IMG/VR virus record: IMGVR_UViG_3300045988_125846
Location: 32,001-96,000 of that record
Source: a virus
Direction: 5' to 3' (one strand)
Length of the DNA stretch: 64,000 nt
The translations under genes and the position numbers were made by a program. The notes under the pieces were generated by a model that saw nothing but the letters and a program-made list of their open reading frames with translations, made no database searches and was not told where the DNA came from. Each line of letters begins with the position of its first letter. The first letter of the stretch is position 1. This document shows positions 1 through 42,270 of this stretch, piece by piece.

Positions 1-145
1 ACGGCTTATGGAATCCTCTTGTAAATGTGTGAAACGCCTTTCCGTCAATTCTGATAGCAACTGGGCATCTTCTCATTAATTTTGTCTTAGGAATCTACTC
101 ATAAAATGTCTTCATCCTAACGCCTAAATCATCATGTACTGGCAT
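1..145 (-). CDS. Thg1-like protein (tRNA 3'-5' nucleotidyltransferase family), N-terminal 48 codons; gene runs off the window start; in-frame TAG at 95-97
   Basis: Own translation from ATG 143-145 (SD GAGAGG upstream): MPVHDDLGVRMKTFYE*IPKTKLMRRCPVAIRIDGKAFHTFTRGFHKP. RMKxYE followed by RIDGKAFHxFT matches the conserved Thg1/TLP N-terminus. Confidence 0.6.
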
Positions 146-22845: not shown

Positions 22846-23586
22846 TTACGCCTGATACATAAAACTTGGCATTGGCTGTAATTTAAACAGATTTTTCTCA
22901 TGCATTGAATCAATCTTAGCTTTTACTTCCTCACTTGGCTCAATTCCATCTCTGATGTATGCATCTAATTCAGCATAAGTAAATCCAAGGTTATCTTCAT
23001 CTGTCTTTCCACAAAGACCGTCAGTAGGTGTCTTATCAACTAATTCTGATGGAAGTCCTAACTCACGACCAATAGCCTTAACCTCTGTTACTGTAAGCTG
23101 AGATAACGGTGCAAACGAACCAAATCCGTCACCTCCGAAGGTCGCATAACCAACCCAATCCTCGGAAAGATTACAATTACAACTTGGTATACCGTTATTA
23201 CACTGAGCATAGAAATACAATTCTGTCATTCTAACTCTTGCAGGAACATTTACTTTAGCCTGTTCTGTAACAACTACTCCATTTGATTCCATTTCAGAAA
23301 TAATAGAATCAACGGTTGAACCGATATTAATAATTTTGTATTCAATCCCAAGATGATTTGCACATAAAATACTACAGTCAATATCTGACTGTTCATACTG
23401 TGGTAGCATAATACCTTTCACTCTATCAGCTCCTAGAGCAGAGACACATAAGGCTGCGACAACAGACGAGTCTTTACCGCCAGATAAAGCAACACAACAG
23501 TTCTTATCTGGGAATTTTTCTTCAAACAAATTTTTAATCCATTCGATACAATCATTTGTTACTTTCTTAACATCAAAATTATACAT
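22846..23586 (-). CDS. nadE: NH3-dependent NAD+ synthetase
   Basis: PP-loop CVALSGGKDSSVVAAL and C-terminal TDEDNLGFTYAELDAYI; about 246 aa. Confidence 0.8.
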   Translation of the reverse strand: MYNFDVKKVTNDCIEWIKNLFEEKFPDKNCCVALSGGKDSSVVAALCVSALGADRVKGIMLPQYEQSDIDCSILCANHLGIEYKIINIGSTVDSIISEMESNGVVVTEQAKVNVPARVRMTELYFYAQCNNGIPSCNCNLSEDWVGYATFGGDGFGSFAPLSQLTVTEVKAIGRELGLPSELVDKTPTDGLCGKTDEDNLGFTYAELDAYIRDGIEPSEEVKAKIDSMHEKNLFKLQPMPSFMYQA

Positions 23587-23608
23587 AGGTTCTCCTTCAT
23601 TTATAGGT

Positions 23609-24412
23609 TTAATCAGTTATTTCCACTTTATAGTTATACAATGCCCTATATACAACTATAGGAAAATTATCATATTTGTTTTTATAATAGTCTGCAATTT
23701 CTTTTATATAGTTTTCTTTCTCTTTTTTATATGCACAAAATGCTTCTTCTGGTGTGTTAAATACACCGATATGTACTTGTTGTTTTGTATTTTTCGTATT
23801 ATTATTTAATTTTGAAACTTGTGCAATAAATTTTCCAAGTCTTTTATTAAAAGATACTCCTATTGGGTATTCCCCTCTTTTTGCGTCAGTTTTCGTGAAA
23901 AGAATATTAATACGTTCAGGAACGAAGATACATGTATCTTTTGAATATACTGTATTATTTTTATATAATATGTCTTTATCCAAACACATTTTCTCTTCTC
24001 CACATTCGTAAAAATTATCATTAAACCACTTTGAAAAGTTCGACAAATAAAACCACTCATCATCTACTTCGCATTTTTTGTAAGTCGGATATCGTGATAA
24101 ATCTATTTTATTATAACAACGCTTTAACATACCAACCCAGTATAAATATTCTTTTGTAAATGAATCATCTTGTTTTATTATTTCATTTCCTACTATACCG
24201 TGATTAAATACAGTAGGTAAAAATGTATCAAATGTAGTACCTTTAATAAAATTGCTATATGCCTGATGATATACAATGTTGTTCGTATCTAAGAATTGAA
24301 TATCAATATCTGTAGCATTTTTATATTTAATTATTTTCATTCTTTCGCCCTGTTTATTAACTACTATTTCCCAAAGTCTTTCCTTTGCTTGTGATTCAGA
24401 TATTTTAAACAT
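23609..24412 (-). CDS. AP2-domain protein, homing-endonuclease-like
   Basis: GVSFNKRLGKFIAQV ... HIGVFNTPEEAFCAYKK (AP2/ERF-like DNA-binding domain) and LDKD...YSKDTCIFVPERIN (degenerate HNH-like). No SD at the ATG. In-frame ATA codons at 24443-24448 sit 5-8 nt after GGAG. Confidence 0.55.
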   Translation of the reverse strand: MFKISESQAKERLWEIVVNKQGERMKIIKYKNATDIDIQFLDTNNIVYHQAYSNFIKGTTFDTFLPTVFNHGIVGNEIIKQDDSFTKEYLYWVGMLKRCYNKIDLSRYPTYKKCEVDDEWFYLSNFSKWFNDNFYECGEEKMCLDKDILYKNNTVYSKDTCIFVPERINILFTKTDAKRGEYPIGVSFNKRLGKFIAQVSKLNNNTKNTKQQVHIGVFNTPEEAFCAYKKEKENYIKEIADYYKNKYDNFPIVVYRALYNYKVEITD

Positions 24413-24460
24413 AGGGTTATCTGTTTTTAAATGTGTTTCTTTTATTATATATTCTCCTTC

Positions 24461-25087
24461 CTACATTCGATTCATCACATCATAAAACCGAATTAAATAC
24501 TCATATACATTTCTAGGAACTAACTCTTTTACTTTTTCAAATTCACCTTTCTCACATAAATCTCTAACCAAACTTGAAGAAGTATGATTTTCTGGTATCT
24601 GAATTTCTGTGAAATGTTCTTTGTATTCCATAAGATTTGCTTCTCTCAAAGCATTCTCAAGGTTCTGACCTTCTCTCACACATGCTACAAAATTATATTC
24701 CTCAACAAACGGTTTCCAATTATACCAAGTTGTAAGTGTTTCAATATTATCCATTCCTAAACAAATATAGTATTCGTTGAAGATATAATCTTTTTCATTC
24801 ATATCTCTTATCTGAGTAATAGTATTGTATGTCCTCTGTGGAAAGAAGCTGGTTGTTTCAACTTCGGATGCCCACATATTATTTTCATCACAATTTGGCA
24901 TTGAATTAATCAGCGATACTCGACAATATCCAGGTATTAAAGTCTTTTTCTTCGCAACATATGTATCATGTGCAGGAATAAACAATATAGCATCGGCATT
25001 AACCGCTTTTTTAGCAGTCAATGCCATATCAACATGAGCGTTTGTAATCGGATTAAAACTTCCTGGTATAAGTAAAATTTTATTCAT
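24461..25087 (-). CDS. nadD: nicotinate/nicotinamide mononucleotide adenylyltransferase
   Basis: IPGSFNPITNAH (GxFxPxHxGH-type motif) and C-terminal TSSSLVRD (ISSTxIR-type). Overlaps the pncB stop by 8 nt. Confidence 0.7.
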   Translation of the reverse strand: MNKILLIPGSFNPITNAHVDMALTAKKAVNADAILFIPAHDTYVAKKKTLIPGYCRVSLINSMPNCDENNMWASEVETTSFFPQRTYNTITQIRDMNEKDYIFNEYYICLGMDNIETLTTWYNWKPFVEEYNFVACVREGQNLENALREANLMEYKEHFTEIQIPENHTSSSLVRDLCEKGEFEKVKELVPRNVYEYLIRFYDVMNRM

Positions 25088-26288
25088 GATCCATTCTCCA
25101 ATTAATACATCTCTTTAGATAATCAACATAATCAGGGTTTTTACACATGCCTTTTCCTTCTACGTCAGAAACTTTTGCAACATCCATACCGTTACATTTA
25201 GTAGTTTTCATTACAATATTTAAAGCAGGAACATCTGTATCATTACTCAAATAAGTACCAATTCCAAATGCAACATTTACTCTATCATGGAAGTGTCTGA
25301 ATAACTTATCAGCTCTTTCAAAATCAAGACTGTCACTAAACAGAAGTGTCTTTGTCTTAGGATTTATACCAAGTGACTCATAATGATTAATCATCTTTTC
25401 ACCCCATTCAATCGGATCGCCACTATCATGTCTTACACCACTGAATAATGTTGCATATGTCAACTGAAAATCTTTCAAGAAACAATCAGTTGTAATTGTA
25501 TCTGTGAGCGCAATACCATTTAACACACCATACTCTCTAACCCATGCGTCTAGGGCATACCAGTTTGAATATGCTGGATTGTGCTTGTGATTGCCCTGAC
25601 CAGAACACATAATCCATTCATGAGCCATAGTTCCAACAGGCGTGAGATTATATTTCTTTGCGAGATATACATTAGATGTACCAACAAATTTAGATGGACT
25701 GTGTAATGTATCATTCAAATGTGAAAACTTCTTAACAGCTAACTCCTGTGCTTCAGCAGAAAGTCTTCTTCTAAGACCAAATTCAGAAAATGTACCAGCA
25801 TACCAATGACCGCTTCTGAGATTTTCATACTTTTCATCTAATCTCTTTTTGAAACTATTAAGCAATTCTTCATAGTTATATGCCATTCTGAAATATACTT
25901 CGTTTACAATCGCAAGTGTAGGAATCTCATACATAGATGTATTAAGCCATGTACCAAATGTTTCGATAGAAAGACCGCAATCTGAATCTGTTGTAATCTC
26001 AAAATCCTCATATCTTGGCTGCCACAATCTCAGAAAATCAACATACGAACCCTTCATCCATTTGATATTATCAATATAAGTAAGTTCATCTTCTGTGAAT
26101 CTCAAACCACAATATAATTTAATCTGTCTGCGAATCTCTTCTACCATTTCTGGTGTAAAATGAACATCCTTATTACGACACTTAAAACTCCAAGTGGTTT
26201 TATAATCACTAAACTGATGATAAATAGCCTGTCCCATTGACAATTTGTAGGCATCTGTCTCAAATAAACTTGTAATAATCTGCTCCAT
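25080..26288 (-). CDS. pncB: nicotinate phosphoribosyltransferase
   Basis: Collinear with E. coli PncB: TDAYKLSMGQA, GTSNVYLAKKYNLTPVGTMAHEW, GIALTDTITTD, GVRHDSGDPIEWGEK, FGIGT and LNIVMKTTKCNG. Start trimmed to Met32 of the track ORF. Confidence 0.85.
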   Translation of the reverse strand: MEQIITSLFETDAYKLSMGQAIYHQFSDYKTTWSFKCRNKDVHFTPEMVEEIRRQIKLYCGLRFTEDELTYIDNIKWMKGSYVDFLRLWQPRYEDFEITTDSDCGLSIETFGTWLNTSMYEIPTLAIVNEVYFRMAYNYEELLNSFKKRLDEKYENLRSGHWYAGTFSEFGLRRRLSAEAQELAVKKFSHLNDTLHSPSKFVGTSNVYLAKKYNLTPVGTMAHEWIMCSGQGNHKHNPAYSNWYALDAWVREYGVLNGIALTDTITTDCFLKDFQLTYATLFSGVRHDSGDPIEWGEKMINHYESLGINPKTKTLLFSDSLDFERADKLFRHFHDRVNVAFGIGTYLSNDTDVPALNIVMKTTKCNGMDVAKVSDVEGKGMCKNPDYVDYLKRCINWRMDHE

Positions 26289-26289
26289 A

Positions 26290-26844
26290 TTATTTACCTT
26301 CTTTCTTGATTTGATTAAATATTGTTCTAATATCATATTCTCTGTTTTCGTACTCATAAAACAGATTAATATACTTATCAATAAAAGCTATATCATTTGG
26401 ATGCATTGCAATTGGTTTACTTTTCTTAGATTTCCACCATTTTAATTCCTTCTCAAAATTAAATGATTTACCATGATATGCTCTACCTGCTCCAAGATAA
26501 TCACAAAGCATTTCTTTTTTATACTTCATTGGCATTTCAATAGGATTTCCACCATTATCAAAATTGTCTTCCCAATACTCGTAGTGGTGCTTGTTTCTTC
26601 CTTTATGGTGCATCCAAGCAGCCGACCAACCATTCTCTTTCTTACAAGCGTCTATTGGACTTGAAGTACCTTGATAATACTTAACACTCTCCCAAAATTC
26701 CGTTGGAGAAAATTTAGATAAATCATGTACTAACCCTTGAAATGGAATTCCCACTTTACAGCAATAGTAGAACACCCAACGTTTATGAGTACAGACTTTC
26801 TTAAAATGTCTAAAAGTATTAATGATATAATTCTTATACTTCAT
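26290..26844 (-). CDS. hypothetical His-rich protein embedded in the NAD operon (possible HD-type phosphohydrolase, DUF5662-like)
   Basis: LVHDLSKF and WMHHKGRNKHHYEYW. Overlaps the pncA 3' end by 11 nt and ends 1 nt before the pncB start. The family call is tentative. Confidence 0.35.
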   Translation of the reverse strand: MKYKNYIINTFRHFKKVCTHKRWVFYYCCKVGIPFQGLVHDLSKFSPTEFWESVKYYQGTSSPIDACKKENGWSAAWMHHKGRNKHHYEYWEDNFDNGGNPIEMPMKYKKEMLCDYLGAGRAYHGKSFNFEKELKWWKSKKSKPIAMHPNDIAFIDKYINLFYEYENREYDIRTIFNQIKKEGK

Positions 26845-27358
26845 TATTTTCTCCAATCACTTCAATCTGACAACTTTTCATAACTTCCATAGCAGCTTTA
26901 TGTTTATCAGGTGTGACACCTGCACAGCAACTAGCATCTACTGTAATATCAATCTCAGGATAATTTGCTCTAATAATAAGTGCATTTGAAATTACGCAGA
27001 TACTTGTGCATAATCCGCAGATTTCAACACTTTTAAATTTAAAATCATCCCAATGTGCCCATCCAAAAGTAATTTTGTCAATCAGAATGTCATTATCAAT
27101 ATCAAGATCTAACTTATCTGAAATCTGCCAACCAACAGTATTCTTTACACAGTGAGTAACAGGAAGATGTACACCTTCATATGTCTCTAAATAATTCTCA
27201 GAGTGTGTGTCTCTTGTAAAGATTACCTGTTTACCAGCATCCTTGTACTCCTTAATTTTCTTTGCTACATTTGATACAATCGCCTGTGCTTCCTTTGTAC
27301 CAAGCGTTCCATCAATAAAATCATTCTGCATATCTACAACAATTAATGTTTCTCTCAT
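26834..27358 (-). CDS. pncA: nicotinamidase (isochorismatase family)
   Basis: LIVVDMQNDFIDG, FTRDTH, and the catalytic Cys context ICGLCTSICV. Confidence 0.75.
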   Translation of the reverse strand: MRETLIVVDMQNDFIDGTLGTKEAQAIVSNVAKKIKEYKDAGKQVIFTRDTHSENYLETYEGVHLPVTHCVKNTVGWQISDKLDLDIDNDILIDKITFGWAHWDDFKFKSVEICGLCTSICVISNALIIRANYPEIDITVDASCCAGVTPDKHKAAMEVMKSCQIEVIGENNEV

Positions 27359-28365: not shown

Positions 28366-29757
28366 TTAATATTTAATCCAACCATCTGTAATACCAGTCA
28401 TCCAATAAATAAGATCTTCTCTATCATTTTTTAATCTTCCATCTATTACACGAGTTAAGATTTCATTGAGCCAGTAGCCAACTTCTTTTCCACTTTTAAT
28501 GAGCATTGTATCCATTACATCCTTACCATTAACTGCTAAATCCTTTAGAGAAAAACATTCATCATCCTGTAAGACTTCTTCTAAAATATATCCAATGTTA
28601 TCAATCTTCTGTAATCTTGTTTCCTGATTAATGTCTGCTTGTGCTTTAATATCAGCTCTACGAACATTTAATAACCTTCTGAACTGTTCTTCTCCAATTT
28701 TATTAAGCCATCTCTTGACATATTTCTTTCCAACCTCAAAAGTAGCATCATGATAATAAACAAGCTGTACAACCTTTTCTCTTGTATCATTATCAAAACG
28801 AAGTCTTTTCATAATTGTATCAGTCATATCAGCACTGACTTTTCCATGTCCTTTGAAATGTCTGATACCATCTTCTCCATCCTGATAACAATGTGGTTTT
28901 CCTATGTCATGAAAGAATACCGCTAATGATGTAATTAAATCTATTGGATTTAAGTCTTCTTCACAATCACAAGAATATGCTTCTACAGCATGAATTGTAT
29001 GTTCCCATACATCATAGATGTGATATGGATTATTCTGTGGAAAATCAAACATATCTTTTATTTCAGGAATAAACAATGATAATACATCGCTATATAAAAC
29101 CATCTGTACACAGAAATCACTTGATGCAGCGATTTTACAGAACTCACTATTTATCCTTTCAACTGATATATTCTTCAAATTCTGATACACCTTATGTAAA
29201 ACATAATCTGTATTTGGTTCAAGAACAAAATCCAACTGAGAAGCAAATCTGATAGCTCGTAAAATTCTCAAAGCATCTTCATCGAATCTATCTTCTGGTT
29301 TACCAACACACTGAATTTTGTGATACTTTATATCTTCCATGCCATTAAACGGATCTACAAGACCAACTTCATCATTGTATGCCATCGCATTGATTGTAAA
29401 ATCTCTACGCTTTAAATCTTCTTCAAGACTTTTTGTAAAAGTTACTTTATCTGGTCTACGGCTATCAGAATAATTACCATCAATTCTGTATGTTGTTACT
29501 TCATATGGTTCTCCATCAATGACAATCGTTATTGTTCCATGCTGTAAGCCAGTTTCAATAATTCTTTTATCCTTGAATACTTCCATCATCTCATCAGGTG
29601 TAGCAGATGTTGTAATGTCATAATCGTGAATTGGTCTTTCCAGAATGCTATCACGAACACAGCCACCAACTAAATATGCTTCGTATCCTTTATCTTGGAG
29701 TATATGAATAATCTCATTTGCACCAGATGGGATTTTAATTTTTAATTTAGATTTCAC
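28366..29757 (-). CDS. cca: CCA-adding enzyme (tRNA nucleotidyltransferase) with HD domain
   Basis: GGCVRDSILERPIHDYDITT, RRDFTINAMA, and HD motif FFHDIGKP. Confidence 0.8.
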   Translation of the reverse strand: MKSKLKIKIPSGANEIIHILQDKGYEAYLVGGCVRDSILERPIHDYDITTSATPDEMMEVFKDKRIIETGLQHGTITIVIDGEPYEVTTYRIDGNYSDSRRPDKVTFTKSLEEDLKRRDFTINAMAYNDEVGLVDPFNGMEDIKYHKIQCVGKPEDRFDEDALRILRAIRFASQLDFVLEPNTDYVLHKVYQNLKNISVERINSEFCKIAASSDFCVQMVLYSDVLSLFIPEIKDMFDFPQNNPYHIYDVWEHTIHAVEAYSCDCEEDLNPIDLITSLAVFFHDIGKPHCYQDGEDGIRHFKGHGKVSADMTDTIMKRLRFDNDTREKVVQLVYYHDATFEVGKKYVKRWLNKIGEEQFRRLLNVRRADIKAQADINQETRLQKIDNIGYILEEVLQDDECFSLKDLAVNGKDVMDTMLIKSGKEVGYWLNEILTRVIDGRLKNDREDLIYWMTGITDGWIKY

Positions 29758-30775
29758 CCTTAACCACCCTTTCGTTTACACTTGCAACAAACTCATTGAT
29801 TTTCTTGTAGTCTGGATTTTCAGGAAGATTAGTATTTTTCTTTGCATAATCCAATCTCTTCTCATAGTCATTTACCATTTCAAAGAACTCAGGAATTGGC
29901 TGATCGTTGCTGTCGAGATATTTACCATTACGAATATCCATAAGCAAATCATGTTCATCTTCTCTATATGTGATTATTCTCTCTTTCTCAAGAATATCTA
30001 AACACATCATATAAAGTCGAATAAGATGCATTGAATGTTTTGCAATTTTACCATGCTCAATAGCTTTCTCATTTCTTTTACCAATCTTTCCATACTGACG
30101 AACTGTGTTCTGAAGTTCATTCCACATAGAGCAATAATCTCTTAATGGATAATGAGTAAGGTTTACATCCATAAAAATCTCTGTGTCATATCCTTCCTGC
30201 ACAGCCTTATCAATATATAACTTCATTGAATCATCTGAATATGGTGTGTATTTCTTTGTAAAATCTGTCTGCATAAATTCAAGCGTCTTTAAAATGTGTT
30301 TCTCCAATTCTGACTGAGACATCTGATGTGCTGCTTTCTGGTTCAATCTATAGAGCTGCTGATTCGCATATCCTCCAAACGAATGACAAGCTCTCTTTGA
30401 TAAAAATAAATGTGCATTATCAATTAGTTCCTGACCAATAGATGATACATAAAAGTAATGTTCAGGTTTATTTCCAAGCATTTCTATTGTATTAGGATTC
30501 GTATTACTTAACAATGCTACTAACTTATTAAAGGCATAAATAGTTGTGTCTGTCTCATTGTTTACAAACTGCTCAAAATTCTCATTTGTGAGGATCTGCA
30601 TCTTGCTATTCAAAGCACAACCACGAATATCTAAATCACTGCCTTCATTGTTTGTTCCATATGCATGACTTCCACCAAGAGTTAAGATAATGATATTGTT
30701 ACCTAAATTCTTATCTGTTCTCAGGAAGTCATACTCTTTTGATTTTAATTTGTCCTTAATCTGTTCAATTGTCAT
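29747..30775 (-). CDS. Pol-beta-fold nucleotidyltransferase, RlaP-like (RNA-repair-associated)
   Basis: LGGSHAYGTNNEGSDLDIRG nucleotidyltransferase motif; about 340 aa. The 3' end overlaps the cca start by 11 nt. Start trimmed to the ATG after TTGGAGG. Confidence 0.55.
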   Translation of the reverse strand: MTIEQIKDKLKSKEYDFLRTDKNLGNNIIILTLGGSHAYGTNNEGSDLDIRGCALNSKMQILTNENFEQFVNNETDTTIYAFNKLVALLSNTNPNTIEMLGNKPEHYFYVSSIGQELIDNAHLFLSKRACHSFGGYANQQLYRLNQKAAHQMSQSELEKHILKTLEFMQTDFTKKYTPYSDDSMKLYIDKAVQEGYDTEIFMDVNLTHYPLRDYCSMWNELQNTVRQYGKIGKRNEKAIEHGKIAKHSMHLIRLYMMCLDILEKERIITYREDEHDLLMDIRNGKYLDSNDQPIPEFFEMVNDYEKRLDYAKKNTNLPENPDYKKINEFVASVNERVVKGEI

Positions 30776-30921: not shown

Positions 30922-31014
30922 TTATTTATTCTTCTTACGTTTTCCTACAATAAAACCTGCTCCAAAGCATACACCGAGACAGATTACGAAAACTCCAATG
31001 TTTAATACAATCAT
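30922..31014 (-). CDS. small hydrophobic peptide (30 aa)
   Basis: Own translation MIVLNIGVFVICLGVCFGAGFIVGKRKKNK. The ATG shares one nucleotide with the upstream stop (TAATG). Confidence 0.35.
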   Translation of the reverse strand: MIVLNIGVFVICLGVCFGAGFIVGKRKKNK

Positions 31015-31763
31015 TACTTATTACCTCTCTGTCTCTTCATATCATCAAGGATCTGGCGAGCATTGCGCTCTCTTTCAGAATTAGCAAGTCTTCTCTCATT
31101 AGCCTGTGCGCTAGAATCATATGCAATTCTACTTCCTTCTGCACGTTCTCTTGTCTTTCTTGCTCCTTCACGAACTCTTTCAAGCATTCTATCACTCTCA
31201 TTATTTGTATTAAGATTATCCATACTCTGATGAAGTTCGATAATCTGACTATCGGCTTCCATCTGAAAAAGAACCTGTTCCTTTTCCTCTTTAAGTTTCT
31301 GCAATTCTTCGGCTGCCTGATCACGAATGTCTTTTTGGTGAGCCTGTGCTTCTCTCATCTCTTCAATTGTATCTTTTAGTACATTAATCTTATTCTCCAA
31401 AGTAGACTTCTTCATTGCATACTGCATTGCTTCATTTTCTTTGTTTTCATCAAGACAAGCGTTAATCTGCTGTGTAACACGCATAATATCTTTATTTGCC
31501 TGATATAAGTCTTTTTCTGCTGTATCACGCTTTCCTGAAATTTCAGCATATGTAGCAGATGCCTTGTTATAAAAATCTTCCTTTTCTCTAATGGCTGCGT
31601 TATAATAATCTCTAGCACCTTCTGGTGTCTGTGCATCCTGACGCATTACTTCATCTGTTCTTCCTTTAAACTTTACTCGAAGCTGTTTACCAAAAGGAGT
31701 AAAGAAAAGAATCAGTGCAATTAATACAATCGCCACAATTATAATAAACATAAAATTTGTCAT
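31014..31763 (-). CDS. membrane-anchored coiled-coil protein, PspA/IM30- or TelA-like
   Basis: N-terminal TM helix FMFIIIVAIVLIALILFF, then about 220 aa of heptad-like Glu/Lys/Arg/Gln-rich sequence. The family call is tentative. Confidence 0.4.
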   Translation of the reverse strand: MTNFMFIIIVAIVLIALILFFTPFGKQLRVKFKGRTDEVMRQDAQTPEGARDYYNAAIREKEDFYNKASATYAEISGKRDTAEKDLYQANKDIMRVTQQINACLDENKENEAMQYAMKKSTLENKINVLKDTIEEMREAQAHQKDIRDQAAEELQKLKEEKEQVLFQMEADSQIIELHQSMDNLNTNNESDRMLERVREGARKTRERAEGSRIAYDSSAQANERRLANSERERNARQILDDMKRQRGNK

Positions 31764-31772
31764 ACAATCCTC

Positions 31773-32354
31773 CTACTCTGCATCAATTCCATACTGATTA
31801 CATAATGCCTTTAATCCACCATTATAGCCACTTCCTACAGCCTTAAACTTCCATTCGCCATTATGTTTATATATTTCAGATACGACTAACGCAGTCTCGG
31901 TAGAGAAGTCTTCACTTAAATCAAAACGAATAAGCTCCTCGCCTGTCTCTTCGTCTACTACACGCACATATGCATTTCCAACCATACCGAAGTTCTGAAG
32001 TCTACTCTCAGCATCATAAATTGTGACCGTCACAGCAAGAGTCTCATAGTCTGATGGGATTTTATCAAGTTTAATCTTAATAACCTCATCATCTCCATCT
32101 CCCTCACCTGTACGGTTATCTCCCATATGCTTTACACTTTTTGAACTATGTTCAAGATTACCATAGAAAATAAAATCCTCATCCTTGCCAACCTTGCCAT
32201 TCTCTTTTGTCATAAACACAGAGGCATCGAGATCAAAATCTGCTTCTCCGTCATAATGATTAATATCCCATCCAAGTCCAACAAGAATGTTTTTTAATGA
32301 CGGTCTACCCTTTGTTAAATCTACTCTCTGTCCTTTACTTAACGAAACTGACAT
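31773..32354 (-). CDS. terD: TerD-domain protein
   Basis: LSKGQRVDL, GLGWD, DFDLDASVF, GDNRTGEGDGDDE, FGMVGNAYVRV and GEWKFKAVGSGY. Confidence 0.85.
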   Translation of the reverse strand: MSVSLSKGQRVDLTKGRPSLKNILVGLGWDINHYDGEADFDLDASVFMTKENGKVGKDEDFIFYGNLEHSSKSVKHMGDNRTGEGDGDDEVIKIKLDKIPSDYETLAVTVTIYDAESRLQNFGMVGNAYVRVVDEETGEELIRFDLSEDFSTETALVVSEIYKHNGEWKFKAVGSGYNGGLKALCNQYGIDAE

Positions 32355-32366
32355 AATTAAATCCTC

Positions 32367-32942
32367 CTACTTGTATCTTCTTGTTAATTCGCTAACACTT
32401 GAATCATTTGTTCCCTGACCGATAGCGTTAAATTTCCACTCTCCGTCTTTCTTATAAACTTCTGCAAATACCATTGCTGTCTTGCCAGCATAATCATCTG
32501 AAAGATTGTATTTACAAATTTCCTTACCAGTTGACTCATCAACAAGTCTAATGTACGCATTCTTGATAAGTCCAAAATCCTGCTTTCTTGAAATACAATC
32601 ATAGATATTTACTACAAATACAATCTTCTCAACCTTATTTGTAATATTCGCAAGATCAACGGTAATCTGCTCATCATCACCGTCTCCATCTCCTGTGAGG
32701 TTGTCACCATGATGATACACACATCTGTCTTCCGCTGATCTGTCACCATAATAAACACATGTACGATACTTATCATCTTTTCCTAAAATAATTGCTGAAG
32801 CATCGCAATCAATGTTTGGCTTAGAACCAAATAATCCTTTCTTAGCAGCATCCCATCCAAGTCCTACCATAATCTTTGTAAGACCACCTGCTACTTCCTT
32901 AGATAAATTAATTTTCTGTCCTTTTACTAAATTTACTGACAT
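32367..32942 (-). CDS. terD: TerD-domain protein
   Basis: LVKGQKINL, GLGWD, DCDASA, GDNLTGDGDGDDE and GEWKFNAIGQG. Confidence 0.85.
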   Translation of the reverse strand: MSVNLVKGQKINLSKEVAGGLTKIMVGLGWDAAKKGLFGSKPNIDCDASAIILGKDDKYRTCVYYGDRSAEDRCVYHHGDNLTGDGDGDDEQITVDLANITNKVEKIVFVVNIYDCISRKQDFGLIKNAYIRLVDESTGKEICKYNLSDDYAGKTAMVFAEVYKKDGEWKFNAIGQGTNDSSVSELTRRYK

Positions 32943-32960
32943 ATATATTCTCCTTCCATT

Positions 32961-33539
32961 TTATAAATCAAGACCAAAATTTCTACCAATAGCAGCTAAA
33001 CCACCATTGTAACCTGAACCAACTGCATTAAACTTCCATTCACCGTTCTTACGATACAACTCACCTGCAATAACACCTGTCTCTAATGAGAAATCCTCAT
33101 TAAGTTCATATTTGAAAAGTTCCTCATTTGTATCAGCGTTGTATGCTCTAATGTACGAATTATCAACCATTCCGAAATTCTGTAAACGATTTTCTGCATC
33201 ATAAATTGTCGCTGAGAAGCTAATCTTTGTAATATTAGATGGAATCTTATTTAACTCAACAATCATTGTCTCGTCATCGCCATCACCTACACCTGTTCTA
33301 TTATCACCAGAATAAATCAATGCTCCGCTTGGATGCTGTGGCTGACCATAAAATACAAAATCCTGTTCGCCTGTTACCTTTCCTGAATCATCAGTAAAAA
33401 ATGCTGATACATCCAAATCGAAATCTGCATTACCATCGTATCTATTTGTATCCCATCCAAGACCAAATACGACTTTGTTTAAACCTGCATTGCCTTTTGT
33501 AAGGTCAATCTTCTGACCTTTAACTAAACTAATTGACAT
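32961..33539 (-). CDS. terD: TerD-domain protein
   Basis: Start trimmed to MSISLVKGQKIDL (SD AAGGAGG). GLGWD, DFDLDVSAF, GDNRTGVGDGDDE and GEWKFNAVGSGY. Confidence 0.85.
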   Translation of the reverse strand: MSISLVKGQKIDLTKGNAGLNKVVFGLGWDTNRYDGNADFDLDVSAFFTDDSGKVTGEQDFVFYGQPQHPSGALIYSGDNRTGVGDGDDETMIVELNKIPSNITKISFSATIYDAENRLQNFGMVDNSYIRAYNADTNEELFKYELNEDFSLETGVIAGELYRKNGEWKFNAVGSGYNGGLAAIGRNFGLDL

Positions 33540-33732
33540 ATTGTTTGTCCTCCTTATTCTTGGGAAGGCTGTCAACCTTCCCTTTTAATAATTTAAAAGA
33601 AATTGGGAATGTGAGTAACGTCAGAAAAATAAATGGAATAAAGCGTGTAATACATGCTACAACAACACTAATTGAAAAACATATAAGAGTAATAATCTCT
33701 ACTTTTTTATAACTTTTATCTCTCCTTATCAT
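33529..33732 (-). CDS. small membrane protein (67 aa, two predicted TM helices)
   Basis: Hydrophobic stretches IITLICFSISVVVACI and IPFIFLTLLTF. Lies between the ATPase and the terD genes. Confidence 0.45.
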   Translation of the reverse strand: MIRRDKSYKKVEIITLICFSISVVVACITRFIPFIFLTLLTFPISFKLLKGKVDSLPKNKEDKQYVN

Positions 33733-33748
33733 GTTCTCATCTCCTCAA

Positions 33749-36349
33749 TTACTTATTCTCTCTTTTCTTCTCAATAATCTTTCTAATAAGATCAATTGGA
33801 ATAACCATAAAGGCTAAAATTACAACTACTACCCAATGTTTGAAATCTAAAGCTGTGACCTTAATAAGATTTTCTGCAAAGTTGCAAAGAGCAAATGTCA
33901 TTGCAAAAATTCCGATTGCAATGGCTGAAAATAACTTATTCTTTCCAATGCCATTGAATAAATTAATATGCTCTGTACGAATATTAAATCCATTAAATAC
34001 TGCCATAAAGCATAACAATGCGAATCTCGCTGTCATAGCTTCTGTTTCAGATGCAAACATATTTGCAATTGGGCTAAATGTAATAATTCCATAGAGTACA
34101 ATAAATGCTACTGTACTAATCGCAATACGTTTCTTTGCTCCTCTAATGAATAAGCCAGAACCTTTCTTAATAGGTTTCTCTGTCATATACTCATCTTTTG
34201 GTGGTTCACCACCGAATGATAGTGAATTAAGGGAATCCATAATGATATTTACAATCAGAATCTGAACTGAAGCGAGTAATGCACCTGTTGCAATCATTGG
34301 ATAGATAACACTGAGAATCAGAAGTGAAATATTAATAGGTAACTGGAATTCAAGGAACATCATAATATTGTGCATAAATGTTCTTCCAAGTTCTACTGCC
34401 TTTACTACGCTTGCAAAATTATCATCTGTCAATACAATGTCTGAAGCTTCTTTTGCAACATCTGATCCACCTTGCATACCAAAACCAACATCAGCTCTCT
34501 TTAAAGCAGGACTATCATTTACTCCATCACCTGTCATTGCAACTGATTTTCCAATCTCTTGTGCTAATGTGACAAGTCTGAGTTTTGTGTTTGGTGAGCA
34601 TCTTGAAATAACTCTCAATCGAGGAATTATACTCTTTACTTCATCATCTGACATCGCTTCAAATTCATCATTTGTAAGTGCTAAATCTCCATCTTTGTAA
34701 ATTCCACACTCTGTAGCAACTGCAACTGCTGTCTCAATACAATCGCCTGTAATTTCAATAACTTGGATACCAGCCTTATGTGCTATTTTTACTGCACTCG
34801 GTACTTCATCTCTTACAGGATCTACAACACCGATAATTCCAAGGAATGTCATGTCATTTGGTATTTCATTCTCTACTAAATCACCATCTGCCATTGTAAC
34901 TGCAATACATCTCATCGCATTACTTGTCATCGCTGTAATTGCATTACTTAATGTATCATTGTCGTTATTCTCTACAATTTCACCACTTGAGTCCATTACT
35001 TTTGTACAATGCTCAATCAATTTCTCAGGTGCGCCCTTATAGTATGTAACTCCATCCTTTGTCGTAAAAGCTGAATACTTATTACTACTATTAAATACCT
35101 GCTTTAACTTAACTGGATATTTTTTCTGAATGTCAGCATGTGTTTCAGGATTTACAAGGCTAAGAACTGCTCTATCAATTGAATTACCACCTGTAATATT
35201 GTTTTCTGAATCAAATGTTGCACTATTATTTAAAGAAATGTTTGCCTCGATATTATTCCAAAGAACCGAATCCTTATTTACATCATTACCAAAGCCATCA
35301 ATAATCTTCTTTGGAGTCATAATACCTGTCGTAAGAGTACCTGTCTTATCAGTACAGATAATATCAACATATGCTAACTCTGGAATTTTACCAGGATTCT
35401 TAGCAAGAATATTGAATTTCTCCATTGTCTTTACATTCTGTTTTGTTACAAGTTTTACAATAAGAGGCAATCCTTCGGGAACAGCAGCTACAATAATTGT
35501 TAATGCTACTGAGAAGTTCTGTGCGATTTTCTGAATAATATTCAGAACGCCACCGCTAAAATATTCTCCAAATCCAACCTGTACAATTCCTGAAATTGTA
35601 AGCACCGCAAATGTAATAACGGCTGCGATTGTTCCCCACTTAGAAATGAAGTCGCTCAGATTATCAAGTGCAATATCAAGTGCTGTCTTTGGTGCTTCAA
35701 GTGTTTGCATTTTAACAAGCGTATCGCCATTTACTGTATTCACACCTACATCAGTAACAATCATTTTTCCTTCGCCTGACATTACTGTTGTGCCAGCAAA
35801 TAAGCAATTCTGATTCGTATAAGCATCTGTTGAAGTAGTTTTCTTATGAACGTATCCTTCAATTGGTGTTTTCTTACACTCTTTTGTTTCTCCATTAATA
35901 GCTGCATTGTTTACAGAAATCTTACCTTCAATGAGATATCCATCTGCAAAAATCTCTTGTCCCATTCCTACACAAACAAGATCACCAACTACCAATTCAT
36001 CCTTATTAATTGTTTGAACTTTGCCATCACGAATTACGTCACAATACCTGACTGATGTTTTGGCTCTCAACTCTGCTGCTGATTTTTGAACACCAAGTCC
36101 AGTCTTAACAGCAATACATGTTACAATTGCTAATACAACAAGAATCATAATTGGATCTGATAAATCCATTACTCCCATGACTCCAAGGAATAACTGCAAT
36201 ACTGCAATTGCAATAAGAATCATTGTGATTTTCTCACTTAATGCCTCCTTTGCGAAGTCATACCACTTGTCCAACTTTGGTTCAGGAAGCTTATTACTTC
36301 CATGAAGCTCTCTACTTTTGAGAACTTCTTTACTACTCAATCCATTCAT
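33749..36349 (-). CDS. P-type (P2, Ca2+-transporting type) cation ATPase
   Basis: Cation_ATPase_N-like LSSKEVLKSRELHGSNKL, phosphorylation site ICTDKTGTLT, and hinge MTGDGVNDSPALKRADVGFGM. 866 aa with multiple TM segments. Confidence 0.85.
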   Translation of the reverse strand: MNGLSSKEVLKSRELHGSNKLPEPKLDKWYDFAKEALSEKITMILIAIAVLQLFLGVMGVMDLSDPIMILVVLAIVTCIAVKTGLGVQKSAAELRAKTSVRYCDVIRDGKVQTINKDELVVGDLVCVGMGQEIFADGYLIEGKISVNNAAINGETKECKKTPIEGYVHKKTTSTDAYTNQNCLFAGTTVMSGEGKMIVTDVGVNTVNGDTLVKMQTLEAPKTALDIALDNLSDFISKWGTIAAVITFAVLTISGIVQVGFGEYFSGGVLNIIQKIAQNFSVALTIIVAAVPEGLPLIVKLVTKQNVKTMEKFNILAKNPGKIPELAYVDIICTDKTGTLTTGIMTPKKIIDGFGNDVNKDSVLWNNIEANISLNNSATFDSENNITGGNSIDRAVLSLVNPETHADIQKKYPVKLKQVFNSSNKYSAFTTKDGVTYYKGAPEKLIEHCTKVMDSSGEIVENNDNDTLSNAITAMTSNAMRCIAVTMADGDLVENEIPNDMTFLGIIGVVDPVRDEVPSAVKIAHKAGIQVIEITGDCIETAVAVATECGIYKDGDLALTNDEFEAMSDDEVKSIIPRLRVISRCSPNTKLRLVTLAQEIGKSVAMTGDGVNDSPALKRADVGFGMQGGSDVAKEASDIVLTDDNFASVVKAVELGRTFMHNIMMFLEFQLPINISLLILSVIYPMIATGALLASVQILIVNIIMDSLNSLSFGGEPPKDEYMTEKPIKKGSGLFIRGAKKRIAISTVAFIVLYGIITFSPIANMFASETEAMTARFALLCFMAVFNGFNIRTEHINLFNGIGKNKLFSAIAIGIFAMTFALCNFAENLIKVTALDFKHWVVVVILAFMVIPIDLIRKIIEKKRENK

Positions 36350-36478: not shown

Positions 36479-36979
36479 TTACTTTGATTTTTTATTTAAA
36501 ATTTTTATAGCTAACTCTTTTAATTCTTCTGTCAACCCATGCTTATATGTTGTTTTAATAAAGTGGTCAGTATTTAAAAACTCACACATATCTGAATCAT
36601 CATCTAATATAATAAAATTATCAACTGGATTCTTTGACAACCATTCTCTAATTTCATCCCCACGTTGAGTATCGCCACTCAAAGATGGAGTAATATCATA
36701 CACCTCTATATCATAATCAGATAATCTACTAATTAGTTTTGTGTACAATTTATTTCCAAAAATACTTTCTTTACCACTTCTATCACAACCAATTCGCCAA
36801 GAGGATGACACAACAATTTTTGCGTTTGTTTTGTCAATTATTTCTTTTAATAATTTTAGAGGTCTATCCTCCACTTCCGCATATAATATACATCCCGTAA
36901 TATTATTCTTTGCTCTATAAATCAGCAAGTCATCCTCAGAATTGAGTACACCATCTACATCTAAAAATATAACCTTCAT
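36479..36979 (-). CDS. HAD-superfamily phosphatase (the type found in RNA-repair 'Swiss army knife' proteins)
   Basis: VIFLDVDGVLN (DxDG motif I), VVSSSWR, and IILDDDSD. Confidence 0.55.
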   Translation of the reverse strand: MKVIFLDVDGVLNSEDDLLIYRAKNNITGCILYAEVEDRPLKLLKEIIDKTNAKIVVSSSWRIGCDRSGKESIFGNKLYTKLISRLSDYDIEVYDITPSLSGDTQRGDEIREWLSKNPVDNFIILDDDSDMCEFLNTDHFIKTTYKHGLTEELKELAIKILNKKSK

Positions 36980-37597: not shown

Positions 37598-39805
37598 TTA
37601 CGCATTTGCTATAAAATTATCAAAGCTGCGTTTCATATATGTATAATTAACTTTCTGTGATGAACTAAAATCAGATTTATTTCTGTAATTCTCAATCCAT
37701 TTTTCAAAATCCTGATCCTTATCATTTTGACAAGCATATGCCATGAGTGCTACTAATGCCATTCCACACTCTTTATAAACTGGATCGTCAATCTTAACAC
37801 AATCTTCTACCATGTCTGTGTAAAGGTTTATATCTTCGTCTGTCACATTTGGATTTGCATTTTCTTGAACAAAGGAAAGAACACTTTCTTCCGTATTTTC
37901 TTCAGCACTTTCTTTCGTATTGTTATTCTCCAATTCTGTGTTATTTACTTCTCTTGTACCAATATGTAAAAATTCATTCATCAGTTTTATAAGTAAATCA
38001 ATTTTACCTGTAATAGTTGCCTTTTTCTTTGTCTGTTGGTCTTTAAAATCTGCCATAGATACACCATCAACTTCTTTATCTTTAAGTTCTGTATTATATG
38101 CTCTTAAGAAATCAATGAATCTTGAATCTTCAATATTATATGTAGTAAATTTATCAAATACTGCAATCCACATTGGCATTGTAGTTGGAGTAAGTAATGA
38201 CTTCAAGTCTTTATTGTCATCGCCTAATGCTAATTCCAATCTATTAAAATGTGAATTAAGTTTTAAGAACTGCTGTTCTGTTGCATTTTCATCAACATAT
38301 TTGTAAATTGTATCAAGTTTTGCTTTCCATGAATCACGGAAGAACATTAACATTATTGATTCTGCAACAACACGTTCCAACTTTCCCTTAATAACATTAT
38401 TATCTGTAAACTTCCCACAATTTTTAAAGAATGTGTTTTTCTGTGAAATATTTTTAATATATCCCGCTGTCTGTGCAGATACATTAAGAAAACCACCCTG
38501 TTCCTTATTCATACTCGCATGATTGTTATAATCACGAATATGATCTGCAATCTGCTCATCTGTACAATCAAAGAATTTTGTTACGTTTATATTGAAATTA
38601 TTGAATCGTTTCTTTAACTCATCAGGAAGATCTTTATAATATTTCCCTATAACATCAAATATTTTCATCTCATATTCTGGTAAGCCATCTTCATCAAGTA
38701 CACGATTTCCATTATCATCTAAGACATAATCTCTATACTGAATTAAATGTCTCTCTGCTCCTGCTGAACCAATCTTAATACGATTTTCCTTGAATGCCTC
38801 AGCATATGAAAGTCTCTGCAATCCGTCAATTAAATGAGAGATTGTCAATCCCTTTTTCTTCTGTTCACAAAGAATAATTTCTGGAATAGGAAGATTACTA
38901 AGAATACGACAAAAATATCTATTCGCTTCTTCTGTAGTCCACTGAAAAGGTTCACGTTGCAAGATGTAGTTGCAGTTCACGTCTCCATTTTTCTTATCCT
39001 GTAACAACGAATACATGCTATACTTGTCCGTCCTGTAATTTTCAGATTCGCTAATTTCAATAATTCTGTCTTCCATATTATTTACCTCCACATCATAATT
39101 CCCATCATTTTTATTCTTTGAAAATACTGAAAGTCCTTTATTTATCTTAATTGACTTCATAGCACTACTATATTCTCTGTCTGATATATTCAATTTTTGT
39201 TTTATATTATCAGCAGGAACATTCTCCATCCGCATCAGCAAAATATTTTTTTGTATCCTCGGCAAAGAATCAATAAAATTATCAACTTTTTCATCGGCAC
39301 TAAAATCGAACTCACTCTTGTCTTCTACGTTAAAGTCAGATGCAATTTTTTCTACTAAATCATTATCTTCTTCAGTAGGTGCATCAAATGAAGTATCTGG
39401 AATAATAACTGGTTTTCCTTTATCGTCATCTGTTACATTTCCATTTTTATCAACCTTTACTATCTTTCCATTTTTATCAGTTAATAGATTTTTTCTTTTA
39501 CATCTCTGATAGTTGTCTCTATACCAGTCAATAACAGATTTTTTAATATTATTAATAAGGTAAGTTTTAAAACTCGCACCTTGAGATGAATCAAAGTTGA
39601 TAACACTTTCCATCAGAACATTCATTGCATCATCGTACAATTCGTCATGTTCATGTGCTGGAATCCCATACCTGAAAAATGCATTGTAACTAATTTTCTT
39701 CAATTTTGACATATCATTTACACAGTATTCAGTAATCCATTCCAACTGTTGTGATGAAAGATTATTTAATTTTTCACGCAATATTTCGTCTTTCACTTCA
39801 TGCAC
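37598..39805 (-). CDS. fusion protein: sigma-70-family (regions 2 and 4) N-terminus plus a DUF262 (ParB/Srx-fold) domain
   Basis: Region-2-like YDDAMNVLMESVINFDSSQGASFKTYLINNIKKSVIDWYRD. Region-4-like LPRIQKNILLMRMENVPADNIKQKLNISDREY. DUF262-like QREPFQW ... LIDGLQRLSY. GTG start. Confidence 0.6.
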   Translation of the reverse strand: MHEVKDEILREKLNNLSSQQLEWITEYCVNDMSKLKKISYNAFFRYGIPAHEHDELYDDAMNVLMESVINFDSSQGASFKTYLINNIKKSVIDWYRDNYQRCKRKNLLTDKNGKIVKVDKNGNVTDDDKGKPVIIPDTSFDAPTEEDNDLVEKIASDFNVEDKSEFDFSADEKVDNFIDSLPRIQKNILLMRMENVPADNIKQKLNISDREYSSAMKSIKINKGLSVFSKNKNDGNYDVEVNNMEDRIIEISESENYRTDKYSMYSLLQDKKNGDVNCNYILQREPFQWTTEEANRYFCRILSNLPIPEIILCEQKKKGLTISHLIDGLQRLSYAEAFKENRIKIGSAGAERHLIQYRDYVLDDNGNRVLDEDGLPEYEMKIFDVIGKYYKDLPDELKKRFNNFNINVTKFFDCTDEQIADHIRDYNNHASMNKEQGGFLNVSAQTAGYIKNISQKNTFFKNCGKFTDNNVIKGKLERVVAESIMLMFFRDSWKAKLDTIYKYVDENATEQQFLKLNSHFNRLELALGDDNKDLKSLLTPTTMPMWIAVFDKFTTYNIEDSRFIDFLRAYNTELKDKEVDGVSMADFKDQQTKKKATITGKIDLLIKLMNEFLHIGTREVNNTELENNNTKESAEENTEESVLSFVQENANPNVTDEDINLYTDMVEDCVKIDDPVYKECGMALVALMAYACQNDKDQDFEKWIENYRNKSDFSSSQKVNYTYMKRSFDNFIANA

Positions 39806-40629: not shown

Positions 40630-40654
40630 CTCCTCTCTTTGTTTGATTTAGCAA

Positions 40655-40728
40655 TGGATCATCAGAGACTTGAACTCTGAGCCTTTCGGTTATGAGCCGA
40701 ATGCACTAACCAATTGTGCTAATGATCC
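40655..40728 (-). tRNA. tRNA-Met: tRNA-Met (anticodon CAT; elongator type, or Ile2 if lysidinylated), no encoded CCA
   Basis: Hand-folded cloverleaf: acceptor GGATCAT/ATGATCC, D stem GCAC/GTGC, anticodon stem TTCGG/CCGAA with loop CTCATAA, T arm CAGAG-TTCAAGT-CTCTG, discriminator A. Confidence 0.85.
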
Positions 40729-40760
40729 AAGTCGCTGACACTATCGCAAGTTTATCAGGA

Positions 40761-40813: not shown

Positions 40814-40892
40814 ATAGCAACTACACATTTTGCTCTTACAATGATTAATTCTTGCGTTCTGCGATAGAACCCGGTCTGGAAGTATCGCATAG

Positions 40893-40964
40893 CAGGGCAT
40901 ATCAGATTCGAACTGACAAATTTCGCAGTCAAAGTGCGATGCCTTACCGCTTGGCGAATGCCCT
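40893..40964 (-). tRNA. tRNA-Gln: tRNA-Gln (anticodon TTG), no encoded CCA
   Basis: Hand-folded: acceptor AGGGCAT/ATGCCCT, anticodon stem TCGCA/TGCGA with loop CTTTGAC, T arm GTCAG-TTCGAAT-CTGAT, discriminator G. Confidence 0.8.
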
Positions 40965-41295: not shown

Positions 41296-41547
41296 TCAGG
41301 ACACTATTTGGGGAAACTTAATATTATGCACAATAAATTCCTGCACTCCATCCAGCGAAAGCAACCCAAAAAAGTCATTATCTTGATAATTAATTGTGTT
41401 TGCCCTATTTATTATTCGCTTTCCTTCATCAACAGTTATCTGTCTTGGTCTTGTATGGATAAAAGTCATACCGTTGAAGGAATCAACCCATATTTTGCCA
41501 GGTGTTTCATCAATCATTTTTTTTGCTATTTCTTTATCTACATACAT
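41296..41547 (-). CDS. hypothetical protein (83 aa), translationally coupled to the MazF-like gene
   Basis: The ATG shares one nucleotide with the mazF-like stop (TAATG). No family recognised. Confidence 0.5.
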   Translation of the reverse strand: MYVDKEIAKKMIDETPGKIWVDSFNGMTFIHTRPRQITVDEGKRIINRANTINYQDNDFFGLLSLDGVQEFIVHNIKFPQIVS

Positions 41548-41927
41548 TATGCCATTACCTCCTCAAGCTTGTAGTCTGTTCCAAAAAATAAAGAATTAAA
41601 GCATACTTTATCTACCATTCTTTTATTTTTATCATCAGTAATAGTTCCAATTTTTGAGATCACTTCATCTTTTGAGATTGTTGTGATCTGCTCACCTAAC
41701 GCCATAGAATATAATGTTAATCCATTATTTTCATTTGCTTGAATACATCCATGACAAGGCATGTTTGTCTTTTTAATCTTACTTGTCAAAGGCATCACTG
41801 TTATAATCGGAGCATATTTCGTACCCAATGGATTACTTACTATTACATAAGGTCTTTCATTCGCTTGTACCGAATTTCCTTCATAATTGATTTTTGCCTT
41901 TATTATGTCGTATCTCTGTAAATCCAT
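41547..41927 (-). CDS. mazF: MazF/PemK/EndoA-family endoribonuclease toxin
   Basis: Aligns by eye with B. subtilis EndoA: RYDIIKAKI...ERPYVIVSN...IITVMPLTSKI...LGEQITTISKDEVISKIGTI. Confidence 0.75.
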   Translation of the reverse strand: MDLQRYDIIKAKINYEGNSVQANERPYVIVSNPLGTKYAPIITVMPLTSKIKKTNMPCHGCIQANENNGLTLYSMALGEQITTISKDEVISKIGTITDDKNKRMVDKVCFNSLFFGTDYKLEEVMA

Positions 41928-42099: not shown

Positions 42100-42270
42100 A
42101 TGCCACAAGGAAAAATCAAAGATGAAAACACAAGGGTTATGGTGCTTCTTTCTAAAGATATAAAAGAAAAGGCAGCCAGAATTGCAACAGCAGATGGACG
42201 CTCGTTATCTGGTTGGATTCGTAACCTCGTAACAAATGAAGTTAATAAGTTTGACGACACTAAGAAATAG
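42100..42270 (+). CDS. ribbon-helix-helix (CopG/Arc/Mnt-like) DNA-binding protein (56 aa)
   Basis: Own translation MPQGKIKDENTRVMVLLSKDIKEKAARIATADGRSLSGWIRNLVTNEVNKFDDTKK; SD AAAGGAG 9 nt upstream. Below the track length cutoff. Confidence 0.7.
   Translation: MPQGKIKDENTRVMVLLSKDIKEKAARIATADGRSLSGWIRNLVTNEVNKFDDTKK

Follow-up and report, generated by a model that had tools for sequence, protein, structure and literature searches.

Transfer RNA is a main point of conflict between bacteria and phages. Immune effectors described in 2026 cleave the CCA tail or the acceptor stem of tRNAs, and according to that work phages could withstand tRNA cleavage only by a means not yet known. Cas12a3 removes the last 2-4 nt of tRNAs, as far as the discriminator; here too, the authors describe the counter-measure of viruses as unknown. 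Tails of tRNAs are also clipped by HEPN-MNT toxins, and the retron Eco2 introduces nicks in acceptor stems (PMC12916289). Here we analyze a stretch of viral DNA of 64,000 nucleotides (nt), positions 32,001 to 96,000 of IMG/VR record IMGVR_UViG_3300045988_125846 and hereafter called the window, in which rlaP, a gene for an RlaP-family Pol-beta nucleotidyltransferase, overlaps cca, a gene for a CCA-adding enzyme. An earlier note on this DNA, made from the sequence without database searches, had taken the two genes for the core of a dispersed toolkit for the repair of tRNA ends.

RlaP owes its name to genomic linkage to RNA ligases, and Burroughs and Aravind (2016) are said to have described it in bacterial RNA-repair operons. 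The closest characterized relatives belong to the RtcB-RlaP-RtcA operons of Pseudomonas, in which RlaP is predicted to re-add lost tRNA nucleotides before the final repair step. Two Pseudomonas RlaPs add 1-2 nucleoside monophosphates to RNA 3'-OH ends, leave 3'-phosphate ends unused and partly restore the aminoacylation of tRNA that is short of one nucleotide; the 3'-OH product is incompatible with RtcB, the ligase that is often co-encoded (Carruthers, Fatma & Huang, bioRxiv 10.64898/2025.12.29.696909). In the crystal structure of PfRlaP, an N-terminal nucleotidyltransferase domain and a C-terminal helical domain form a cleft. The RlaP of the window belongs to the same Pfam family and has the same GS/DxD/D residues, but its fixed overlapping partner is an HD-domain CCA-adding enzyme and not a ligase. 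It also differs in being a long phage form (~340 amino acids, aa) known from sequence alone, and it is only ~27-34% identical even to other phage RlaPs.

Among jumbo phages, RlaP, a CCA-adding enzyme and Thg1 have been presented as a set with which the phage replaces bases lost from RNA ends, and the distribution of RlaP was reported to mirror that of RNA ligases (Iyer et al. 2021, PMC7824862). The same three families, read in that study as a counter to host attacks on tRNA, occur together in the present phage, whereas here RlaP is coupled to CCA, the phage is a temperate phage of Clostridia and no ligase was seen. Phage T4, whose NrdC.11 protein is a member of the RlaP family, sets Pnkp and Rnl1 against PrrC, a heal-and-restore route for defense-cut tRNA that resembles the one proposed below, and relatives of the window have a kinase-phosphatase-ligase of the same logic beside RlaP-CCA. 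In the window itself, by contrast, neither kinase nor ligase was recognized; the proposed target would be the 3' tail and not the anticodon loop, and nucleotide addition would replace sealing.

CCA-adding enzymes start at the discriminator position and replace missing CCA nucleotides. In E. coli Cca, the HD domain acts as a 2',3'-cyclic phosphodiesterase and as a phosphatase. The Cca of the window resembles the E. coli type in combining a class II head with an HD domain that has all metal-binding residues (NF008137, E 3.8e-38 across the HD region). In contrast to that enzyme, its head and neck are nearest those of Firmicutes, and it is phage-borne, a domain mosaic and probably co-translated with RlaP. 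Thg1-like proteins, which act in tRNA 5'-end repair, are represented by a Thg1 domain in a gene at the window edge and in relatives; the window gene lies ~28 kb from RlaP-CCA, whereas the distance is 1-2 kb in some relatives. All four enzyme families and the toolkit idea have already been published. What may be new is the constant coupling of RlaP to CCA in place of a ligase, together with its fit to tail-clipping immunity; no such statement appeared in the literature searched, which did not include Burroughs and Aravind (2016).

The rlaP and cca genes

The upstream gene, rlaP (29747..30775, minus strand), encodes a 342-aa protein of the long phage form (phrog_388) and starts with ATG, with GGAGG just 5' of the start. 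The protein matches Pfam PF10127 with E 5.5e-15 and 56.2 bits (cut-off 23) over model positions 11-247 of 249, and phrog_388, annotated 'nucleotidyltransferase', with E 1.8e-51 across its full length. The motif GGSHAYGTNNEGSDLDIRG, quoted in the earlier note, is present in the translation. In an alignment reaching down to 27% identity, the catalytic signature is complete and unvaried (G35 S36, D47 D49, D76), and the basic residues K246, R253, R271 and R282 of the C-terminal half are conserved. A sequence search of the PDB with RlaP gave no match. Assignment to the RlaP type, proposed earlier from the letters alone, is borne out by the PF10127 match. An antibiotic-resistance or defense nucleotidyltransferase, including one of the antibiotic or kanamycin clade, was considered and rejected: there was no NCBIfam match, and the sole PADLOC match was a marginal one to PglZ (E 5e-4).

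The closest GenBank relative of this RlaP, at 64% identity, lies on a human faecal contig with an integrase (MT836204.1, 8161-10138; L002 in the series of L-numbers that labels related loci and contigs). There an AAA ATPase takes the place of CCA after RlaP and represents another partner for the same RlaP clade.

The downstream gene, cca (28366..29757, minus strand), encodes a 463-aa class II CCA-adding enzyme made up of head, neck, HD domain and tail. Its start codon is GTG, which is credible because no in-frame ATG precedes the GGCVRD motif. Pfam matches are to PolyA_pol (E 4.4e-39), HD (28.5 bits; cut-off 22) and tRNA_NucTran2_2, and the protein exceeds the threshold of the NCBIfam equivalog model for CCA tRNA nucleotidyltransferase, NF009814 (330.9 bits against 290). 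These matches uphold the assignment to CCA-adding enzymes made in the earlier note. Identity as a poly(A) polymerase was rejected, the NCBIfam pcnB model scoring 168 against a cut-off of 306. The closest solved structures are the CCA-adding enzymes of Planococcus and Geobacillus (E 1e-66 to 1e-62), and the head motifs GGCVRD, DYD, RRDFTINA and EDALRILRAIRF all align to the Planococcus enzyme. The HD phosphohydrolase region (28651..29022, minus strand; residues 246-369; Pfam HD) has the complete metal-binding set H246, H253, H283-D284, H304, H336 and D369. None of these residues varies among RlaP-linked CCA enzymes sampled in three phage groups (Clostridia, Vequintavirinae and Vibrio) or in the headless form described below.

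Compared with loci L003-L082, Cca is a mosaic of domains: head, neck, HD and tail each occur as several alleles that are combined differently, and the tail, the tRNA-binding part, is the most variable segment (64-98% identity). This mosaic structure could reflect recombination or an arms race.

Linkage of rlaP and cca across phages

The two genes overlap by 11 nt (29747..29757, minus strand), the rlaP stop codon TAA occupying 29749-29747 and the cca GTG 29757-29755. The earlier note had read the overlap correctly, and it probably couples translation of the two genes. Fusion of RlaP and Cca by frameshifting gained no support, as no canonical slippery site was seen before the rlaP stop, and a scan for promoters and terminators returned matches at chance level and was uninformative.

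Viral and bacterial collections yielded 117 related loci, in which RlaP is 53-99% identical, for a total of 118 with the window. A full-length CCA gene lies immediately downstream of RlaP in 73 of the 118. The identical 11-nt overlap is found in 63 of these 73 pairs, and cca starts with GTG in 64. The pairing is far beyond chance, because the identical overlap recurs in 63 loci across many contexts. One protein cluster of the gene pair alone has >1000 member sequences. The flanks of the pair, taken as 600 nt on each side, fall into 29 unrelated clusters upstream and 22 downstream, which indicates that the two genes move together.

The two genes have nonetheless had discordant histories, and their adjacency outlives the exchange of either partner. 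In relatives whose RlaP is 96-99% identical to that of the window, the segments of Cca vary independently (head 87-95%, neck 70-97%, HD 77-96%, tail 64-98% identity). The converse is seen in loci such as L079, in which RlaP is 66% identical and Cca 93-94% identical. Pairing is kept even at a Cca identity of 35-50%, for example in [Clostridium] asparagiforme, Enterocloster and Anaerophilus.

Two variants of the arrangement bear on how the partners may work together. In three bacterial loci (L148 11019-11813; L146; L153), RlaP is followed by a 'headless' Cca of 222-264 aa that consists of the HD domain and the tRNA_NucTran2_2 tail without a nucleotidyltransferase head; the 11-nt overlap is kept in two of the three. 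This form indicates that the HD/tRNA-binding part is the partner of RlaP, and in such loci RlaP may supply transferase activity to a tRNA-binding HD protein. In eight viral loci (e.g., L074 11029-11991), a 320-aa open reading frame (ORF) with no Pfam or PHROG match stands between RlaP and CCA and overlaps both. A 62%-identical copy of this ORF is located just upstream of a kinase-phosphatase-ligase in another phage (L103 1414-2343). Its product is a candidate RNA-repair component.

The linkage extends to at least four unrelated phage groups. In three annotated Vequintavirinae phages, with Escherichia, Acinetobacter and Erwinia as hosts, CCA is encoded on the strand of RlaP, ~2.2 kb upstream of it, and the same spacing is indicated for Enterobacter phage EC152 by match coordinates only. 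Vibrio phage 496E54-1 has the order CCA, one 164-aa ORF, RlaP. In Pseudaeromonas phage KLEP7 the order is Pth2, two ORFs, CCA overlapping RlaP by 20 nt, one ORF and a metallophosphoesterase. Since CCA precedes RlaP in these phages, the reverse of the order in the window, independent assembly of the linkage can be argued.

Co-occurrence was surveyed in 50,697 GenBank phage records, the overlap being derived from the match count of a concatenated query. RlaP relatives were present in 276 records, CCA relatives in 531 and one or the other in 615, which gives ~190 records with both against ~3 by chance, in a count that ignores kinship among phages. By genus counts, nearly all RlaP-bearing phages of Escherichia, Klebsiella, Salmonella and Cronobacter have CCA, and most RlaP-bearing Bacillus phages are without it.

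Further repair genes stand beside the pair in relatives of the window. A kinase-phosphatase-ligase gene follows immediately after CCA in L064 and L092, precedes the pair in L072 and L093, follows immediately after RlaP in L155, and in L111 shares 11 nt with RlaP, a Thg1-like gene being located 1 kb beyond. In L085, a 732-aa protein combining a kinase, a metallophosphatase and a ligase of the T4-Rnl1 type is encoded 7.5 kb upstream of RlaP-CCA. Immediately upstream of RlaP, L026 encodes KptA/Tpt1 (PF01885, E 1.5e-46); L006 has a Thg1-like gene 1 kb upstream of RlaP, and L052 a kinase-HD protein upstream of it. Relatives of the HAD_SAK phosphatase of the window adjoin a kinase-HD gene, a ligase, a distant RlaP or RlaP-CCA itself. 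Because the same repair genes stand side by side in relatives, the toolkit of the window appears to be one combination drawn from a shared, shuffled pool. The idea of a dispersed toolkit is therefore supported, by the contiguous genes of L064/L092, L111, L026 and L006 and by the HAD_SAK neighbors.

Proposed repair at tRNA 3' ends and competing explanations

Together, the conserved overlap, the retention of the pair despite recombination and changing contexts, the headless partner and the linkage in reversed order favor a joint function at tRNA 3' ends, although none of these is decisive against the rival explanations. We put at roughly 55% the probability that rlaP and cca form a co-transcribed, translationally coupled module that keeps tRNA 3' ends functional in infection. 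Its basis in the sequence is family membership, intact catalytic residues and conserved linkage.

In such a module, the HD domain of Cca, and possibly also the HAD_SAK_2 phosphatase, would first strip the 2',3'-cyclic phosphate or 3'-phosphate left by a nuclease. RlaP would then add 1-2 untemplated nucleotides to the 3'-OH and so replace what had been lost beyond CCA, for example the discriminator base, and Cca would finally rebuild CCA. Since the damage is terminal, this route would need no ligase. We infer that the steps follow this order, that tRNA tails are the substrate and that the purpose is counter-defense.

A pathway of this kind would fit two puzzles, namely how phages resist the cutting of tRNA tails and what role RlaP has given the mismatch of its product with RtcB. 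The rlaP-cca pair is thus a candidate counter to immunity that cleaves tRNA tails, such as that of Cas12a3 and HEPN-MNT. A broader proposal, possible but tentative, is that RlaP and an HD-type Cca might constitute a self-contained, ligase-independent rebuilder of N-CCA ends, perhaps acting as a complex via the HD domain or tail of Cca. It would counter tail-clipping immunity (Cas12a3, HEPN-MNT-type toxins) and be widespread in phages of Clostridia, enterobacteria, Vibrio and Pseudaeromonas. If this were true, the main natural role of phage RlaP would be redefined. Cultivable phages with the linked genes are identified here among Vequintavirinae and among phages of Vibrio and Pseudaeromonas.

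Several observations weigh against a joint function at tRNA 3' ends. Pseudomonas RlaP favors an anticodon-loop nick over the 3' end of an acceptor half, in an assay that left out truncated acceptor ends, and shows little base specificity (bioRxiv 10.64898/2025.12.29.696909). With low nucleotide specificity, the right discriminator would be regained in only some of the repaired tRNAs. CCA is absent beside RlaP in 11 of 80 close viral relatives and from ~30% of RlaP-bearing phage records, and in Bacillus and Mycobacterium phages RlaP is found among ribonucleotide-reductase or glutaredoxin genes; this placement and the CCA-less records indicate that RlaP also has CCA-independent roles. Kinship among phages, as stated above, is left aside in the co-occurrence figure of ~190. 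The AlphaFold model of RlaP, built on a shallow alignment of 20 sequences at 78-97% identity, has a predicted local distance difference test score (pLDDT) of 40, too low for use. Finally, a ligase may lie in the rest of the phage genome, beyond the stretches scanned.

That last point leads to the strongest of the rivals, classical break repair, in which RlaP would work with a ligase, encoded outside the window or by the host, at anticodon-loop breaks of the RloC type, and Cca would be adjacent through the clustering of repair genes. The linkage for which RlaP was named and the preference of the Pseudomonas enzyme for an anticodon-loop nick agree with this explanation, as do the kinase-phosphatase-ligase genes that overlap or adjoin RlaP in L111, L064/L092 and L155. 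A close relative of the window, L213 (logan:SRR14099325), is 98.5% identical to it across 3.5 kb beside the Thg1-like gene. At positions 1-1550, ~9 kb upstream of the shared 3.5 kb, L213 encodes an RNA ligase of the Rnl type (PF09414) whose gene overlaps that of an AAA_33/KTI12-type kinase; the window holds other genes there. Against break repair, the constant overlapping partner of RlaP is CCA and not a ligase, and just 3 of 80 RlaP contigs are among the 39 contigs with a Pnkp-type ligase. No RNA ligase was found in the window by Pfam or PHROG scans of most ORFs of at least 200 aa and several shorter ones, and a tblastn search of the window with the kinase-phosphatase-ligase of relatives was also negative, in agreement with the earlier note, which had recognized none. 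The precomputed annotation of matching contigs likewise contains no ligase family in the ~10 kb past either window end. Repair of the T4 type involves a polynucleotide kinase and an RNA ligase; neither was found in the window, and both occur in related phages. Overall, break repair appears a doubtful explanation of this pair.

Ordinary housekeeping is an unlikely alternative: Cca would mature the CCA-less tRNAs of the phage and maintain tRNA ends under translational load, and RlaP would serve an unrelated purpose in nucleotide or RNA metabolism. The window has two tRNA genes, tRNA-Met (CAT; 40654..40729, minus strand; ARAGORN and Rfam, 71.8 bits) and tRNA-Gln (TTG; 40892..40964, minus strand; ARAGORN and Rfam, 62.2 bits). 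As had been noted before, neither encodes CCA, since the bases after the discriminators are TTG and CTA, respectively. CCA genes are common in tRNA-bearing phages (531 records), and the RlaP genes of Bacillus and Mycobacterium phages stand amid nucleotide-metabolism genes with no CCA, both of which agree with housekeeping. The hosts, however, are assumed to own a CCA enzyme. Housekeeping would also leave unexplained the start/stop overlap, the survival of the pair through recombination and in 29 upstream and 22 downstream contexts, the headless HD-plus-tail partner, and the repeated adjacency to KptA, Thg1-like, kinase-phosphatase-ligase and Pth2 genes. Even if the function were ordinary tRNA maintenance, the analysis would still annotate, with good support, a gene pair that is abundant in gut phages.

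An offensive or decoy use, in which RlaP, Cca or both would tail host or defense RNAs (toxin-antitoxin, retron or guide RNAs) for inactivation or decay, is highly improbable: many E. coli RNA species, among them some of rRNA size, are labeled by RlaP in vitro, CCA enzymes can mark unstable tRNAs with CCACCA, and conflict genes abound nearby (NAD salvage, TerD/PspA, a MazF-like toxin), but all conserved neighbors are repair-type enzymes with no nucleases among them, and specific support is lacking.

Other repair genes and the phage context

Two further RNA-repair genes are located away from the rlaP-cca pair, both of them as the earlier note had described. The first (36479..36979, minus strand) encodes a stand-alone HAD_SAK_2 phosphatase of the RNA-repair, or 'Swiss Army Knife', type. 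The protein matches PF18143 with E 2.5e-27 and 96.4 bits against a cut-off of 27.5, and its motifs FLDVDGVLN, SSS and DDD are intact.

The second is the Thg1-like gene, of which the window edge leaves the 5' part (1..145, minus strand; probable start ATG 76-74). The resulting fragment of 38 aa scores 29.0, just below the cut-off of 29.2. Gene calls in contigs 99.9% identical to the window begin this gene at the ATG at 76 and give a product of 262 aa with a Thg1 match, and a full-length relative matches PF04446 with E 4.4e-31. The earlier note had missed that codon 17 (window 97-95) is an in-frame TAG, where relatives have CAG or GAG; this TAG was found in three independent samples. The protein is probably translated from Met24, with the Thg1 domain kept. 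Two other explanations of the TAG codon were rejected: recoding to Gln, given that TAG ends 18 of 91 long ORFs and that coding density under the standard code is normal, and sequencing error, given the same codon in the three samples.

The phage itself is an SPbeta-like temperate element of roughly 150 kb from gut Lachnospiraceae/Clostridia. The window has a G+C content of ~32%, carries nearly all of its genes on the minus strand and encodes an integrase. Contigs 99.9% identical to it sit within assemblies of 240 kb and 551 kb, and the SPbeta-type genes YorF and YorH are present in contigs matching either window end, where a YonO-like polymerase is seen as a faint precomputed match only. Relatives in bacterial genomes belong to Lachnospiraceae and other Clostridia, and IMG/VR has many related contigs of roughly 90-170 kb. 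The SPbeta-type genes, the integrase, the Clostridia relatives and the large related contigs together identify the window as part of a large temperate phage of gut Clostridia. A megablast search of GenBank phages with the rlaP-cca region gave no match, the relatives being uncultivated. The accessory region is highly mosaic, such that the best relative aligns across only 13 of 21 kb.

The genes immediately downstream of cca encode a complete Preiss-Handler pathway for nicotinamide adenine dinucleotide (NAD) (22846-27358, minus strand). On this strand it comprises, in order, PncA nicotinamidase (26834-27358), DUF5662 (26290-26856), PncB/NAPRTase (25080-26381), a NadD-like adenylyltransferase (24461-25087), an AP2-domain ORF (23609-24412) and NadE NAD synthase (22846-23586). 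The pathway resembles the NAD salvage in the list of phage counters to host NAD+ restriction given by Iyer et al. (2021). KptA, found in relatives, likewise uses NAD+.

Between RlaP and the HAD phosphatase, a cassette (31014-36349, minus strand) encodes a PspA/IM30-like protein, three TerD proteins and a P-type cation ATPase; it appears to be a mobile stress or ion-homeostasis module, because only some relatives carry it. A 735-aa protein (37598-39805, minus strand) combines sigma-70 region 2 with a GmrSD_N/NsnA-like (DUF262-type) domain, and its relatives range from 27 to 100% identity among otherwise similar phages. A gene for a PemK/MazF-like endoribonuclease toxin (41547-41927, minus strand; E 1.1e-16) adjoins the tRNA genes and the integrase, which places a phage-borne RNase toxin beside RNA-repair genes. 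On the opposite strand to it, a small ORF (42100-42270, plus strand) has the look, judged by eye, of a ribbon-helix-helix protein. Lastly, a 363-aa protein resembling adenylosuccinate synthetase (4050-5141, minus strand) scores 97 against a cut-off of 402 for PurA and 41 against 300 for PurZ; its gene is flanked by those of the conserved phage proteins phrog_2475 and phrog_2971, and the protein may serve nucleotide modification.

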